From Vicinamibacteria bacterium (GTDB lineage Bacteria > Acidobacteriota > Vicinamibacteria > Marinacidobacterales > Marinacidobacteraceae), in NCBI GenBank assembly GCA_963555995.3, contig OY821641.1:1824001-1888000 (forward strand): a DNA stretch of 64,000 nt, in the 5' to 3' direction. Shown here piece after piece: positions 55,833 to 64,000 of the stretch. Made by a program: the position numbers and the translations under genes. The notes beneath the pieces are model-generated. The model made no database searches, had not been told where the DNA came from, and worked only from the letters and a program-made list of their open reading frames with translations. Positions within the stretch are counted from its first letter, which is position 1. Every line of letters begins with the position of its first letter.

Positions 55833-56082
55833 GGCTTGGAACGCCGGTCTCCAGACCGGCACCAGCGGCGCTCCGCGCCGCGCACGGCCTGACGCCACCG
55901 GCGCCGGGCGGCTTCCCCGGCTTGGAACGCCGGCTTCAGCCGGCACCGCGGGCCGAAGGCCCGCGGATGTCCTCTCCCCGTCGCGGTGATGTGACGCGAG
56001 CCAGGCATCACCGGGCAGGTCACCTTGGTGCCGCCCGCTGCGCTCCGCGCAGCGGTGCCGGCTGAAGCCGGCGCTCCAAGCC
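55833..56082. repeat. Type-B arm followed by a REPIN-like element (type A, interior II)
   Basis: Arm begins right after the TAA; inverted pair at 55919-56082. Confidence 0.85.
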
Positions 56083-58484: not shown

Positions 58485-58560
58485 CCGGTCTAGCGTCGGC
58501 TGGCGCCGCCAGATGCGCGCGTCCTCCCGCGCACCCGGCCGGTCATCAAAACGGCAAAAG

Positions 58561-58726
58561 GGCTTGGAACGCCGGCTTCAGCCGGCACCCGCTGCGCGGA
58601 GCGCAGCGGACGGCACGACGCTGGTGCGCCCGACGGCGTTCGGCTCTCCGTCCATCACCGCGCACCGCGGTACGACGTCCGCGAGCCTTCGGCTCGCTGT
58701 GCCGGCTGAAGCCGGCGTTCCAAGCC
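58561..58726. repeat. REPIN-like element (type A, interior II)
   Basis: Perfect 28-bp terminal inverted repeats between convergent genes. Confidence 0.85.
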
Positions 58727-58754: not shown

Positions 58755-59708
58755 TCATCCGAACGCTTCGAGTAGCCGCCGCCAGTTCTCGCGTTCGCGC
58801 TCGGGGCTGAACAGCGGGGCGCGCGCCGCGCCGTGCCGCGTGAGGTGCTCGAGGAAACCCGGCTCACGCTCCGCGCGCCGCAGGAGGCCCCGGAGTTCCC
58901 CGGTGTCTTCGGGCCGGAAATAGCCCGGGTGGTCCGGACCGAGTAGCCCGACGTTTCCGGGGATCCGGGACGCGGTGACCGGGAGCCCGGCGGCCACCGC
59001 CTCCGACACCACGTTGGCTCCCCCCTCCGTCAGCGACGAGATCACCATGAGGTGCGCCCGTTCGTAGAGCCGCCGCACGCGCCAGGCCGGGACTTCGCCC
59101 AGCCACCGGTAGCGCGGGTTGCGCGCCATTTCACGGCGCGCGGCTTCCGCCCATTCGGGGTCCCGCGCTCCCCCGGCGTGGAGGACCCGCAGGCGCGAGT
59201 CCGCCGGCATCCCCCGCGCCGCCCAGGCCGTTCGCAGCGGGTCCTTCTCCCGGCGGAGGTGCCCCACGACGCACACGTCGAAGGTCCGTTTCGAGGGACG
59301 GCGCTCCACGCTCCCGCCTGAGACCGACTGGTGCACCACGCGCACCCGGGCGCGGAATTCCGGCGGCAGCGCCTCCCCGACCAGGTCGTGCAGCCCGACG
59401 AGCACGTCGGCGCATTCGAGCGACGGACGGGTGGTCTCCGGCTCCGTCTGCAGGAACCCGTAGATGTCCGTCCCGGTCAGCGCCACGATCAGCGGGCGGG
59501 TGGGAAAACGCGCCCGGAAGCGGCCGATCGAAGCGGCGCTCCGCCAGGCGTGGAGGGCGATCATCGCGTCCGCGGATACCCCGTCCCAGGCCGTCCGGAC
59601 AGCCACCCGGTGGCCGAGCGACCGCAGCAGCGCCGCCCAGCGCCTCGCGGTGATCCGGTTCCCGAAGCGGGACCGCGCGCCCGCGGGGGTTACTAGAATG
59701 ATTCGCAC
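58755..59708 (-). CDS. senB: Selenosugar synthase SenB (TIGR04348-type glycosyltransferase)
   Basis: MRIILVTP...GNRITARRWA, ALHAWRSAASI, ALTGTDIY, VGHLRREKDP, SLTEGGANVVSEA and GNVGLLG; adjacent to an EgtB-like gene. Confidence 0.85.
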   Translation of the reverse strand: MRIILVTPAGARSRFGNRITARRWAALLRSLGHRVAVRTAWDGVSADAMIALHAWRSAASIGRFRARFPTRPLIVALTGTDIYGFLQTEPETTRPSLECADVLVGLHDLVGEALPPEFRARVRVVHQSVSGGSVERRPSKRTFDVCVVGHLRREKDPLRTAWAARGMPADSRLRVLHAGGARDPEWAEAARREMARNPRYRWLGEVPAWRVRRLYERAHLMVISSLTEGGANVVSEAVAAGLPVTASRIPGNVGLLGPDHPGYFRPEDTGELRGLLRRAEREPGFLEHLTRHGAARAPLFSPERERENWRRLLEAFG

Positions 59709-59728: not shown

Positions 59729-61024
59729 ATGACCCAGCGCGTTCCCACAGATCGTCTCGCCGCCATCATGGAAGACGCCCACCGTCGCAGCATCGCGCTG
59801 ACCGCGGACCTCGACGACGACCAGTTGATGGGGCCGCGGTCGCCCATCGTGAATCCGCTCAGGTGGGAGATCGGGCACGTCGCGTGGTTCTACGAGAACT
59901 TCATCCTGCGCGGCCTCTACGGGCACGCAGCGATCCTCCCGCAAGGAGACGAACTGTACGACTCGGCAACCGTCCTCCAGGACACGCGCCGGGCGCTGCC
60001 GCTCCTCGGCATCGAGGAAACGATCCACTACGCCGAGACCGTCAGGGACCGCTGTCTCGAACGGCTCGCTCCGGGTACGGCCAGCGAGCGGGACAGCTTC
60101 ATGTACCAGTTCGCCACCTTCCACGAGGACATGCACACCGAGGCGTACATCTACTCCCGGCAGACCCTCGGCTACCCGGCGCCGCGGCTGGGCCGAAGCC
60201 CCGCCCGGGAACCGTCCGGCAGTTGCCCCGGCGACGCCTCCGTTCCCGGCGGGACCTTCCGGCTGGGAGCGGAGCGGGACGCGCCCTTCCGCTACGACAA
60301 CGAGAAGTGGGCGCATCCCGTGCGCGTAGAGCCGTTTTCGATCGCGAGGGCGCCGGTCACGAACGCGGAGTTCGCCGAGTTTGTCGAAGCCGGGGGTTAC
60401 CGGAAGCGGGAGTTCTGGAGCGAGGCGGGCTGGACCTGGCGGGAACGGGCCGGCGCCTCCCGCCCCGTCTATTGGCTCTCCGGCGGGGAGCACGGGTTCC
60501 GGGTGCGGCGCTTCGACGGGATCACGCCCCTGCCGCCCGCCGAGCCGGTCATCCACGTCAACTGGTTCGAGGCGAACGCCTGGTGCGCCTGGGCCGGCCG
60601 GCGGCTGCCCACCGAGATCGAGTGGGAGGCCGCCGCGCTCGGGGAACCCGACGGCGACCGGCTGGCTCCGACCAAAAGGACGTACCCGTGGGGCGAGGCG
60701 CCTCCCGAAGCCCACCGCGCGAACCTGGACGCCTGGGCGCTCGGATGCCTCGACGTGGGAGCGCTTCCCGAGGGGGACAGCGCCTTCGGCTGCCGGCAGA
60801 TGCTCGGCAACGTCTGGGAGTGGACGGCGGACACCTTCAGGCCCTTCCCCGGTTTCCGCCCCGACTCCTACCGGGACTATTCCGAAAGTCGGTTCCACCG
60901 GACGAAGGTTCTGCGCGGCGGCGCCTGGGCCACCCGCGGCCGGCTGCTGACCGGCCGCTACCGCAACTTCTTCGGCCCGGAACGCCGCGACATCATCGCG
61001 GGGTTCCGGACCGTGCGGACGTAG
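59729..61024 (+). CDS. senA: Selenoneine synthase SenA (EgtB homolog; DinB + FGE-sulfatase domains)
   Basis: VNPLRWEIGHVAWFYE, LYDS, FHEDMHTEA (metal His), DNEKWAH, GNVWEW and YRNFF..RRDI.AGFR. Confidence 0.85.
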   Translation: MTQRVPTDRLAAIMEDAHRRSIALTADLDDDQLMGPRSPIVNPLRWEIGHVAWFYENFILRGLYGHAAILPQGDELYDSATVLQDTRRALPLLGIEETIHYAETVRDRCLERLAPGTASERDSFMYQFATFHEDMHTEAYIYSRQTLGYPAPRLGRSPAREPSGSCPGDASVPGGTFRLGAERDAPFRYDNEKWAHPVRVEPFSIARAPVTNAEFAEFVEAGGYRKREFWSEAGWTWRERAGASRPVYWLSGGEHGFRVRRFDGITPLPPAEPVIHVNWFEANAWCAWAGRRLPTEIEWEAAALGEPDGDRLAPTKRTYPWGEAPPEAHRANLDAWALGCLDVGALPEGDSAFGCRQMLGNVWEWTADTFRPFPGFRPDSYRDYSESRFHRTKVLRGGAWATRGRLLTGRYRNFFGPERRDIIAGFRTVRT

Positions 61025-61034
61025 CGGTTCGGGT

Positions 61035-61472
61035 CTATTCGTCCGGGGCGCCCGGGTACACCCGCTCGCCCTCGTAGTCCCTCAGACCGCAGAAACCGAC
61101 GACTTCGTATCCGTTTGCCTGTAGCAGCTCCGCGGCACGCGCGGCTCTTCCGCCACCCTGTCAAGCGGTGAGGATGGGAACTCCGGCCGGGAGTTCGCCG
61201 ATCCTCGCCTCCAGTTCATCGATCGGAATGTGGACGAAGCCGTCAATCGTGCCGTGCTCGGCGAGTTCCTCGTCGGTGCGGACGTCGAGCAGCAGCGCGC
61301 CGTTCGTGAGGGCGGCGTCAATGTCCGCCGCCTCGACCCGGGGAGCCGGCTCCGGGGCCGGCGCTTCCGCGGCGGGAGCGGGGGCCTCGGCGGGAGGCTC
61401 TCCACCTCCGCAACCCGAGGCGACGGCCGCGACCGCGAGTCCGACGCCGGTCAGCAGGAAGAGTTTTCGCAT
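61035..61472 (-). CDS. Rhodanese-domain lipoprotein, predicted selenoprotein (in-frame TGA = Sec104)
   Basis: GGAGG RBS, lipobox ASGC and LLDVRT. The frame continues past TGA (61161-61163) as ILTA-U-QGGGRAARAAELLQANGYEVVGFCGLRDYEGERVYPGAPDE*. Confidence 0.85.
61130..61147 (-). promoter_or_regulatory. Putative SECIS hairpin of rhodanese 1
   Basis: GAGCCGCGCGTGCCGCGG begins 13 nt 3' of the UGA; CCGCG/CGCGG stem with a CGUGC loop; identical in the paralog. Confidence 0.6.
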
Positions 61473-61491
61473 CGTGGACCTCCGTTGAGAA

Positions 61492-61833
61492 TCAATCGAG
61501 CGGCCGGTACTCCCGGTCACCCGCGTACTGCTTGAGGCCGCAGAAACCCACGACCTCGAATCCCGCGTTCTCCAGAATGGCCGCGGCACGCGCGGCTCGT
61601 GGTCCCACCATTCAGGTGGTGAGGACCGGACGGTCACGCGGCAGCTCGTCCACTCGGTCCGCCAGCTCTCCGAGATGGATGTGGACCGCGCCGGGAATCG
61701 TCCCCGATTCGGCCAATTCGAGCGCGGTGCGCACGTCCAGCAGGAGCACCTTTTCGTCGCGCAGCACCTCGTCAATCTGACCGGCGGCGACGAACGGCGC
61801 CCGCGTCCCGAGCGCGCGCCCCATCAGGCTCAT
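61492..61833 (-). CDS. Rhodanese-domain protein, predicted selenoprotein (in-frame TGA = Sec74)
   Basis: LLDVRT..GTIPGAVHI. The frame continues past TGA (61612-61614) as VLTT-U-MVGPRAARAAAILENAGFEVVGFCGLKQYAGDREYRPLD*. Confidence 0.85.
61580..61598 (-). promoter_or_regulatory. Putative SECIS hairpin of rhodanese 2
   Basis: GAGCCGCGCGTGCCGCGGC; 6-bp GCCGCG/CGCGGC stem at the same distance from the UGA as in the paralog. Confidence 0.6.
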
Positions 61834-61979
61834 GTTGCGAGCGTATCAGGGGGGAGTCCGAGCCACCGGGAACTCGTGAGTTCGCTGTCTCGCCTCCCTG
61901 CGGACCCTCACCGGGAGAAACCGCCATGAGGCGGGTCCTCCGGCACACGCCGCCGGTCATGAAAATGTCTGAAGCAGCC

Positions 61980-62233
61980 GGGAACGCCGGTCTTCAGACC
62001 GGCACGCGCTGCGCGACAGCGCAGCGCACGGCACAACGCTTCCGCGTGCGATGGCCCTCGGCTCTCGGATCATCACCGTGAACACCTGCACGACATCCGC
62101 GGGCCTCCGGCCCGCGGTGCCGGTCTGAAGACCGGCGTTCCCAGCCGGCGTCGCCACTTCCGCTGGTTGACGTCGCGCCGGAACCGCATTTTCACAGCAA
62201 CCGGGGCGATGCCGGCCGGAGGCCGGCACTCCG
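61980..62233. repeat. REPIN-like element (type B, interior II) plus a type-C arm
   Basis: Inverted pair at 61980-62146; TGCCGGCCGGAGGCCGGCACTCCG at about 62210-62233. Confidence 0.82.
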
Positions 62234-62242
62234 AGGCGCCGA

Positions 62243-64000
62243 TCACTCCCGCCCCAACGCGCGGGCTTCGGCGAGGAAGCCTTCGTAGATGGCGCGGGCC
62301 TCGTCGAACTGGGCGTACACATGGGCCTGCTCGGCCTCGGAACGCCAGTACTCCCATCCCTCGGCCATCGCGCGCAGCCGATCAATCCAGCGGATCGAGT
62401 ACTCGGCGGCGGCGGCGCTCCGCACCGGCTGGTCCCCCGCCCGGACCCAGACGGGATTCGTGAACGCCTGCGCGTAGCCGCAGTCCAGCGGGCGCGCCTC
62501 GTCGGGCGACCCCTCCGCGCGGAGGATCAGCCAACCGCTCCGGTCCATCGGAACCCATCCGGTGGCCCGCGCCGAGCGCCGGTCCTCCGAGAGCGGCACC
62601 TCCGCGACGTCCTCTCCCCCGGAGACCACCCAGGCGCGTTCGAGCGGCGTCGGGGAGCGCACCCAGGCGCTCCACTCCACCTCGCCCCCCGCGTCGGGAA
62701 GCTGGACGTCGTCTCCCGGAATGCGTCCGTTCACCCGGAAGTCGAGGACCGGCCCGCAGCTCACGAAGGCGCGTCCCTCCCGGATCCCTTCGAGGAAGGC
62801 GCCGAGGTCCAGGCCCCGTTCTCCGGTGTGCACGTAGGTGCGGACCGACCCCACCAGCTTGGACCGTTGCATGTTGCTGATGGAGTCCTCCCCGCCCACC
62901 GCGGTGACCCGGAGACCGTTGTTCATCGTGGCGTACCAGGGGAAGAAACCGGAGCGCGACGCCGAGGACCACTCGACGGCGTCCGTCATGCCGAGCGCCG
63001 CGTCCACCATGTACCCCTTCGCGCCCCCGAGGCTCCCCGGGCTCCCGTCGGGAGCGACCAGGGGATCGTTCTCGCCGAAGAAGGCGTGCACGTAGCCGAC
63101 GGTCGCGCCCTGGGCCTTCGCCTTCCGGAACATGTCGGTGTTGGACGGGTAGAGGCTCTCGATCCCGGTGCCCTCGTAGCCCGTCGTATAGGGCGAGATC
63201 AGGTGCTCCTCCAGCCCGAAGTAGAAGACATGGCCGTAGAACGGGGGCCGGTACTCCTGGCCCACGACCAGCACCATCTCGTCGGTCGAGAGCGGGTGGG
63301 CGCCGCCGCCGGGCACGAAGTGCTGGTAGTCGAGGATCCGGTTGTCCTTGTTGGCGATCTGTTCGAGGACCACGTCCTGGTCCTCGGCGGCGGACATGAA
63401 CATCAGGTTCTCCAGCGTGTTGTGGAGGTTGCCGGCGTAGTTCATGTGGACGTGGGTCGAGCCGCTCCACCACCCCTTGGCCGCCATGTCGGTGATCCGG
63501 GGCAGCCGCAGCGTCAGTTCGCTGACGTCGCCCGCGGCGATCTCGACGCTGGCGGTCACCGGCTCGTACTCGAAACCGCGCACCGCTTCGATTTCGAGCG
63601 GCCCGACCGGAAGCTCCATCCGGAAGCTCCCCGCCTGGTGGAAGGAGTGCTCCCCGGCCCCGCCGATCCGGGCGAAGGCGTCCGGCGGGGCATAGAAGCG
63701 GCCGTCGGCGGCGGTGAGGTGGATCCGCGAGGCGACCTCCTCGCCGGTCGCGCCGTCCACGGTGCGCACCGAGAGCACCCCCATGGGCCGGCTCCAGTTC
63801 CGCCGGGTAATCTCGACGACGCGCCGCTTCCCGCCGTAGGTCTCGAGGAGCGCGAGCTGCGGCAGCCCCCCCGCGTTGTCAATGTAGGCGATCCACTCGC
63901 CGTCCGGCGACCAGCGCGGATGGAAGGCGTCGTGCTGGAAGAAGGTCAGCTTGTAGGGCGAGCCGCCGTCGGTCGGCTGCACGTAGAGGTTCGAGAACTG
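62243..64000 (-). CDS. CehA/McbA-family (PHP-like) metallohydrolase with N-terminal PD40/TolB-like repeats, 5'-partial
   Basis: HPRWSPDGEWIAY, WWSGSTHVHMNY, GQEYR..GH, GYVH, GGEDS..GSVRTY and AFTNPVWV. Confidence 0.8.
   Translation of the reverse strand, partial: QFSNLYVQPTDGGSPYKLTFFQHDAFHPRWSPDGEWIAYIDNAGGLPQLALLETYGGKRRVVEITRRNWSRPMGVLSVRTVDGATGEEVASRIHLTAADGRFYAPPDAFARIGGAGEHSFHQAGSFRMELPVGPLEIEAVRGFEYEPVTASVEIAAGDVSELTLRLPRITDMAAKGWWSGSTHVHMNYAGNLHNTLENLMFMSAAEDQDVVLEQIANKDNRILDYQHFVPGGGAHPLSTDEMVLVVGQEYRPPFYGHVFYFGLEEHLISPYTTGYEGTGIESLYPSNTDMFRKAKAQGATVGYVHAFFGENDPLVAPDGSPGSLGGAKGYMVDAALGMTDAVEWSSASRSGFFPWYATMNNGLRVTAVGGEDSISNMQRSKLVGSVRTYVHTGERGLDLGAFLEGIREGRAFVSCGPVLDFRVNGRIPGDDVQLPDAGGEVEWSAWVRSPTPLERAWVVSGGEDVAEVPLSEDRRSARATGWVPMDRSGWLILRAEGSPDEARPLDCGYAQAFTNPVWVRAGDQPVRSAAAAEYSIRWIDRLRAMAEGWEYWRSEAEQAHVYAQFDEARAIYEGFLAEARALGRE

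Follow-up and report, generated by a model that had tools for sequence, protein, structure and literature searches.

Tandem rhodanese genes with in-frame UGA codons and covarying hairpins in an Acidobacteriota genome probably encode selenoenzymes of sulfane-sulfur transfer

Two tandem rhodanese genes on the minus strand of the window (the whole 64,000-nucleotide stretch of DNA analysed here), each of which standard ORF calling ends at an in-frame TGA, are very likely selenoprotein genes, a reading supported by the conserved UGA column, the tails that follow it, a covarying hairpin, the selenocysteine (Sec) machinery of the genome and the existence of cysteine homologues. The insertion of Sec at both UGAs appears almost certain, and we consider it probable on the whole that the products are selenoenzymes transferring sulfane sulfur, with RhdB exported and RhdA cytoplasmic.

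The gene rhdA (61492..61833, minus strand) would encode a predicted cytoplasmic, single-domain rhodanese of 113 aa with Sec74 in a U-M-V-G-P-R loop, its true stop being a further TGA that is replaced by TAA in 2/26 orthologues. The gene rhdB (61035..61472, minus strand, stop TAG) would encode a predicted lipoprotein of 145 aa with Sec104 in a U-Q-G-G-G-R loop, laid out as signal peptide, Cys21, Pro/Ala/Glu linker and rhodanese domain. As a first, sequence-only reading of this DNA had noticed, the Sec-UGA codons, at 61612..61614 in rhdA (minus strand, residue 74/113, TGA in 27/27 orthologues) and at 61161..61163 in rhdB (minus strand, residue 104/145, TGA in 30/30 orthologues), fall at the catalytic-Cys column: the Pfam Rhodanese match crosses the TGA in both read-through proteins (RhdA, E 5.8e-12, residues 19-93; RhdB, E 3.4e-10, residues 51-124 of a 146-residue query), the curated PF00581 cut-off of 22.2 bits is passed by both (46.4 and 40.7 bits), homologues show TGA or Cys at this place, and HMMER comparison with solved structures aligns the TGA residue to the catalytic Cys of CoA-disulfide/persulfide-reductase rhodanese domains. 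The same reading had described homologous tails of about 40 codons past the TGA, and this too was borne out, with 39 open codons in rhdA and 41 in rhdB, mutually homologous and conserved. These tails are under purifying selection, the within-family pN/pS past the UGA being 0.16 for the rhdB-type copies (B) and 0.30 for the rhdA-type copies (A), as compared with 0.16 and 0.18, respectively, ahead of it.

Conservation of the UGA extends well beyond the window. In 61 related genomes, all 78 matches at E<=2.4e-20 carry one TGA, the next match lying at 1e-12, and both genes are found in 26/27 other genomes of the family, G007 (89% complete) having neither. The 30 B and 26 A copies that we extracted have the TGA at the identical column throughout, as does the A copy of L034, which brings A to 27, and their tails end 37-48 codons past Sec. 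A sample of the phylum yielded a match at E<=1e-14 in 34/401 genomes, with a TGA in 34/36 matches from 32 genomes, one of which (G107) is unpublished; the TGA position was inspected in L104-L131, excluding L132, G102, G318 and the second G062 copy, and it coincides with the catalytic-Cys column in all 28 of these loci. The Sec-rhodanese family is widespread in Acidobacteriota, and close database homologues belong to named members of the phylum. The gene selA occurs in 32/32 genomes with the TGA form versus 300/401 overall, a comparison in which kin are not independent; two genomes with weaker, TGA-free matches (G170 and G285) gave no selA match, and selB is present in 27/27 genomes of the family. 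Contigs from RNA runs of relatives span the rhdB UGA (X2, 60891-61352; X5, 61061-61352; word shares small) and also include the 5' part of rhdA, such contigs being unable to show transcription or strand.

Full-length homologues with Cys in place of Sec were also retrieved (P0064, P0067, P0076, P0147, P0148, P0149, P0208 and P0209), together with one full-length homologue, P0061, that does not have Cys at the Sec column. A quick tree, built from 75 rows over 102 columns and leaving many forks open, supports the A clade at 98 and the family B clade at 95; the six Cys forms included (P0064, P0067, P0076 and P0147-P0149) sit, with weak support, in three places among the Sec forms, which suggests that the change from Sec to Cys happened repeatedly.

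The genome has what is needed for Sec decoding, as a search for selA, selB, selC and selD proposed along with the sequence-only reading made clear: SelA (490 bits, cut-off 268), SelB (297 bits, cut-off 242) and SelD (247 bits, cut-off 125) all exceed their cut-offs, and a tRNA-Sec is present (69.7, cut-off 47). None of the three outcomes set beforehand as speaking against selenoproteins was encountered, the machinery being present, the homologues carrying TGA or Cys at the column, and tail and hairpin being conserved. The selD gene lies about 1 Mb from the window, near selA, and its product apparently carries a fused oxidoreductase-like region at the N-terminus. In at least seven further genes of the same genome, a recognised domain contains an in-frame TGA at the column of a redox Cys. 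Likely selenoprotein genes on G000:C1 are those for a Prx-like UxxC protein and, 1.1 kb from it, an OsmC-like protein (1619913(+) and 1621024(+)), a Prx of TxxU type and a CYCXC-family protein over the NF041379 cut-off (1183397(-) and 1335270(-)), an AhpD-like CxxU protein and a Trx7/PDZ-type protein (3698142(+) and 3532433(+)), and a MerB-like lyase (1026209(-)). Five further read-through candidates from the genome screen (L136 and the L139-L143 group, together six loci) looked like ordinary gene junctions and were dropped.

Downstream of each UGA lies a candidate SECIS element, namely an apical hairpin in rhdA (61580..61596, minus strand) with a 6-bp stem and a loop of 5 nt, its second nucleotide being G, that lies 21 nt past the UGA, and in rhdB (61121..61156, minus strand) an apical 5-bp hairpin (61144-61130) with a predicted lower stem. 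The bSECIS model, as given in the accessible part of PMC13188914, has a loop of 3-9 nt with G in its first two positions and a stem of 4-16 bp situated 16-37 nt from the UGA; the hairpins fit this geometry, with 5 nt in the loop, G as the second of them, stems of 5-6 bp and a distance of 21 nt, and the loop obeys the published G[G/U] rule. The sequence-only reading had drawn attention to an identical 18-mer at the same distance from both UGAs and to its stem-loop, and the former indeed begins 14 nt past each TGA (61598-61581 and 61147-61130) and occurs nowhere else in the 3.8 Mb genome. Since the 18-mer encodes identical residues (AARAA) in both paralogues, its identity is by itself modest evidence: codon usage gives P ~0.016 for five identical codons, and the codon is shared at 27/46 identical residues of the compared paralogue stretch, the codon string of the 18-mer being used by 0/48 AARAA motifs in long coding ORFs.

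As for the stem-loop, folding energy does not single it out (z-scores of +0.8 to -0.4 against shuffles), and the hairpin is absent from the 60- and 80-nt minimum-energy folds. Its five pairs have probabilities of 0.93-0.98 in a 42-nt context and 0.30-0.43 in a 60-nt context. In the RNA-folding check that had been proposed, the hairpin is not unusually stable. The hairpin energies, -9.9 kcal/mol for A and -6.5 kcal/mol for the isolated B hairpin, are no better than those of shuffles; with flanks they range from -9.4 to -17.8 kcal/mol, and B reaches the published limit of -7.5 only with its lower stem. Folding energy as proof of a SECIS was consequently set aside as not significant, and covariation tests were used instead.

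It is these comparative tests that uphold the stem-loop. Codons +6 to +10 of B have a synonymous heterozygosity of 0 and are identical in 30/30 copies, including an Arg CGT of 5% usage, and the mean is 0.04 over codons +4 to +10 versus 0.40 elsewhere; the element is looser in A than in B (0.29 versus 0.04). In a survey of the stem pairs over 82 sequences (63 distinct, some loci being shared between searches), pair +7.3:+9.3 is G-C in 78, C-G in 3 and A-U in 1 (pairing 100%), and pair +6.3:+10.3 is C-G in 76, U-G in 3, U-A in 2 and broken in 1 (pairing 98.8%); with three pair types each, the two predicted pairs lead the ranking of 66 third-position pairs. In the same 82 sequences, the codon in the loop is CGT in 75 and CGG in 7 and never CGC, leaving loops with GU or GG only, and in rhdA the figures are CGT 19/26 and CGG 7/26. 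Compensatory changes within rhdA comprise C-G to U-A (L018 and L021) and G-C to A-U (L032). In a hand-picked 28-row alignment enriched for variants, the covariation amounts to 0.158, a value attained by 0/500 shuffles and approached by no slid register (<=0.092), but double-change pairs number 2, a figure that 69/500 shuffles reach. Given that synonymous sites are frozen, that two stem pairs covary and that the loop shows no variants other than GU and GG, we accept the SECIS as real, on comparative grounds rather than on folding energy. Separately, a distant Sec-rhodanese subfamily (L122-L131) with a V-F-Y/F-U loop and an FCG/FCA tail keeps the UGA with different hairpins, and has Cys relatives in P0152 and P0159.

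The two proteins would act on different sides of the cytoplasmic membrane, again as anticipated by the sequence-only reading. A predicted lipoprotein signal peptide with the lipobox Cys21 at its end occupies 61410..61472 (minus strand), and this N-terminus, with its charged start, hydrophobic stretch and lipobox Cys, is conserved in the family; judged by pattern match only, the lipobox is found in 26/30 B copies versus 0/26 A copies, RhdA having no signal peptide. Ahead of rhdB lies the Shine-Dalgarno sequence GGAGG (61479..61483, minus strand), a similar motif preceding most B starts. A scan for sigma-70 promoters and terminators found nothing; ahead of rhdA, comparison of orthologues brought out a predicted extended -10 element (TG-n-TAnnnT, 61840..61848, minus strand) that ends 6 nt before the start codon. 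The distance of TAnnnT to the rhdA start is 12-13 nt in 19/26 orthologues and 15-16 nt in 5, the motif being absent in 2. Genome-wide, TAnnnT peaks at offsets 12-13 from ATG (119 and 128 occurrences versus ~45-80 at offsets 14-29), which points to a large number of leaderless genes in this genome, and the position of the motif before rhdA at this very peak leads us to predict a leaderless rhdA transcript. The two genes are likely transcribed together, from the rhdA start codon onward.

A separate tandem exists in another family (L144, G052:C212:2300-4300), where a signal-less Sec rhodanese is followed by a lipoprotein copy, the SECIS stem being a U-A or U-G variant; as both of its members have B-type loops, the inside/outside arrangement may well have arisen twice. 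With regard to the window's own family, RhdA would most likely have arisen there by duplication, losing the signal peptide and mostly exchanging the Cys of the FCG motif for Ser.

Which reaction the two proteins catalyze is a question on which the family chemistry offers guidance, and we regard sulfane-sulfur transfer as their likely main job. Thiosulfate-specific enzymes typically carry a basic residue after the nucleophile. The loops of RhdA and RhdB have none, and by this rule polysulfide or persulfide donors would be favoured. In the mechanism that we propose, SelB-tRNA(Sec) would bind the hairpin loop and insert Sec, as established Sec biology suggests; the selenolate would then take sulfur from a polysulfide or persulfide by nucleophilic attack, giving an Se-S adduct on the enzyme, and the sulfur would pass to a thiol acceptor, with RhdB, tethered as a lipoprotein, working outside the cytoplasmic membrane and RhdA inside. 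In line with such chemistry, the accessible parts of two reports describe persulfidation, in cells, of the Cys in the rhodanese domains of CoA-disulfide/persulfide reductases (PMC9405070) and the production of cellular sulfane sulfur by PspE, a stand-alone rhodanese of E. coli (PMC10215317).

A different use of the same selenol is the leading alternative. The proteins might be thiol/selenol oxidoreductases acting on peroxide, arsenate or disulfides, with the Sec of RhdB cycling through a selenenyl-sulfide with the FCG Cys, a reading that we hold to be unlikely without dismissing it. In rhdB this Cys (61089..61091, minus strand) is a candidate second redox residue, being invariant in 30/30 orthologues and in 26/26 further B-type loci and found in the Cys homologues as well, and an AlphaFold model of the RhdB domain (mean pLDDT 85, from a 28-sequence alignment) places Sec at the end of strand 54-58 and the FCG Cys in strand 78-83; the genome, moreover, holds several other redox selenoprotein candidates. 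The equivalent position of rhdA, in the GF(C/S)G motif (61540..61542, minus strand), is not conserved, with Cys in 6/27 and Ser in 21/27 A copies, which argues against the FCG Cys as a general resolving residue; hence the resolving role once suggested for this Cys fails for A, leaving B with a Cys that is invariant in 56/56. Rhodanese-fold reductases do figure among the fold matches of the model, albeit at lower Z; by sequence as well as by fold, the domains that match best are of sulfurtransferase type.

The genomic neighbourhood raises another prospect: as selenium carriers, the Sec rhodaneses would take up selenium at the cell envelope and supply both SelD and the adjacent selenoneine pathway (SenB/SenA) with it. 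The selenoneine synthase gene senA (59729..61024, plus strand; NF041186, 481 bits, cut-off 420) stands tail-to-tail with rhdB at 10 nt, and the selenosugar synthase gene senB (58755..59708, minus strand; TIGR04348, 413 bits, cut-off 300) is placed head-to-head with senA at 20 nt. The adjacency of senA holds in 15/15 genomes of the window's genus that have the pair, and G007, the only genome of this genus without the pair, also has no senA over the cut-off. Against this, the convergent arrangement means that the genes are not co-transcribed; 12 genomes of other genera in the family carry the pair without a SenA that exceeds the cut-off; senA is far from the rhodanese in other families; and the 101 neighbouring proteins that we scanned, from 43 loci, include no selenium gene and give no functional hint outside the genus. 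The link to senA and senB is positional and confined to one genus, and we regard a role in selenium delivery as improbable. A conserved functional neighbourhood was likewise rejected, these 101 proteins belonging to unrelated families, with ribosomal L28 recurring upstream within the family. Besides the pair, the genome has one other rhodanese, a tandem-domain protein; a CoA-disulfide reductase over the cut-off that could act as a partner was not found in it, and among 22 longer homologues, long linkers aside, none was an informative fusion of this subfamily, which is weak evidence.

Several features of the surroundings may be recorded in passing. The upstream same-strand gene (window 62243-64000) encodes a CehA/McbA-family metallohydrolase with propeller repeats and is syntenic in 14 loci of the genus. 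A repeated intergenic element at 61950-62250, for which the contig depth summed in run X9 is very high, is probably a REP-like repeat; palindromic stretches of a similar kind are present near 55880-56000 and 58550-58700. Five genomes from two further families of this order (G045, G039, G030, G043 and G042; loci L145-L155) carry a B-type Sec rhodanese within a unit of ~600-720 bp comprising promoter region, gene and SECIS, with a sharp 5' boundary and 94-100% identity across genera and families. Full copies number 5 in G045, 2 in G039 and 2 in G030, their flanks differ and are rich in insertion-sequence remnants, the unit adjoins a ~105 bp repeat with dozens of copies per genome, and the L148 copy has a nonsense change in its signal peptide; by its sequence, the unit looks like a recently mobile selenoprotein cassette. 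A far-reaching picture would unite these strands: RhdB and RhdA would form a two-sided selenoenzyme relay, in which lipid-anchored, Sec/Cys redox-active RhdB captures polysulfide sulfur or selenium outside and RhdA passes it on within the cell, feeding selenoneine synthesis in this genus. The family as a whole would be a selenoprotein class that extends across the phylum, is missing from the catalogues and also spreads as a self-contained mobile unit of promoter, gene and SECIS. Taken jointly, these propositions are rather a long shot.

More radical departures fare worse. It is conceivable that rhdB alone is a selenoprotein gene and that the UGA of rhdA is a true stop, its tail being translated from the following ATG to give a split, non-catalytic protein; an ATG does stand directly after the UGA in 27/27 A copies, and both hairpin and tail are under weaker constraint in A than in B. 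We nonetheless judge this very improbable: the A copies retain the hairpin through compensatory changes as well as the G[G/U] loop, a Met after the catalytic residue is also found in L130 and in the Cys protein P0151, and the catalytic residue would be lost while the rest of the loop stays conserved. A changed code in which UGA is read as Trp, Gly or Cys, or pseudogenes or sequencing errors, is hardly credible, for although gene callers do take TGA as a stop, TGA ends 929/1451 long ORFs in this genome as an ordinary stop, so that the code is unchanged, the only tRNA with a TCA anticodon is tRNA-Sec, the TGA is conserved across many families with tails under selection, and a contig of run X9, which may be the source sample, matches 61387-61810 with zero differences.

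These findings correct a systematic annotation error. A common enzyme of the Acidobacteriota has been recorded without its active site, since 150/207 retrieved proteins end at the residue preceding Sec, just ahead of the catalytic position; that ORF callers miss both genes, as had been supposed, is thereby apparent in public records, which hold truncated entries of, for example, 73 aa. The family also supplies a very short SECIS with phylum-wide covariation, and its natural Sec/Cys pairs allow a direct test of what selenium contributes to rhodanese chemistry; our literature search returned no such measurement for a Sec rhodanese from bacteria. The pair leaves the accepted view of Sec decoding as it was.

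Sec rhodaneses as such are already known, and the position of Sec is common to the known UxxG forms, from which the present proteins differ in architecture and C-terminal motif. In the accessible part of PMC13188914, five forms are listed and Sec at the catalytic position is already catalogued. Form 2 (COG0607 form 1, UxxG, representative MBM9537886.1; PMC13188914 and PMC12013277, as far as accessible) resembles the window proteins in its PF00581 domain, in the replacement of the catalytic Cys by Sec and in the U-x-x-G-x-R loop, here U-M-V-G and U-Q-G-G. The form 2 examples at hand, the representative and three more, have ~150-180 residues past the rhodanese domain and retain the usual L-x-GG motif (PMC12013277, accessible part), whereas the window family, compared by eye only, has a lone domain of ~100 residues, a G-F-(C/S)-G-L motif and mostly exported members; the long C-terminal extension and L-x-GG are absent from the window proteins, and the authors are not stated to treat this architecture as defining. 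BSepDB, which rests on homology search over genomes including Acidobacteriota, may already file these proteins under form 2. Form 4 (COG2897/SseA type, MCY3690685.1) likewise has a UxxG motif whose Sec occupies the catalytic position, but it is a tandem-domain protein of ~280 residues and the window proteins are single-domain. Form 3 (NF041203, rhodanese_LYCAU) is also a small, single-domain and often exported rhodanese selenoprotein; it has a CxU motif where the window proteins have L-T-(A/T)-U, and rhdA reaches 24.7 bits against a cut-off of 115, with 11/28 alignment members matching at E<=1e-3. Form 1 (UxxS), a multi-domain protein with Sec five residues past the loop Cys, and form 5 (NF045694, TsoB), a rhodanese/DsbD fusion with UxxxxU, have motifs that the window proteins do not share, and NF045694 is matched by 0/28 alignment members at E<=1e-3. 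Neither window rhodanese passes any NCBIfam cut-off, and the 28 alignment members match only weakly.

Among solved structures, the best PDB sequence matches (E 6e-18) are the rhodanese domains of CoADR-RHD, Npsr and CoA-persulfide reductase (3icr, 3nta and 8a56), which are Cys-based and fused to a flavin reductase, a fusion of which this genome has no example. With VIA-align as the means of comparison, the RhdB model matches 3gk5, of rhodanese fold, best (Z 15.2, rmsd 1.3, 91 aligned), and 3nt6 at Z 13.7 (rmsd 2.4, 88 aligned). GlpE and PspE of E. coli are stand-alone proteins of the same fold (Z 12.3 and 12.0), differing in being Cys-based and in other loop residues, and the window proteins score far below their family cut-offs; the division into a periplasmic PspE and a cytoplasmic GlpE parallels that predicted for RhdB and RhdA. 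The small stand-alone form described here, of which one copy is predicted to be exported and the other to be cytoplasmic, differs from the catalogued forms with which it was compared.
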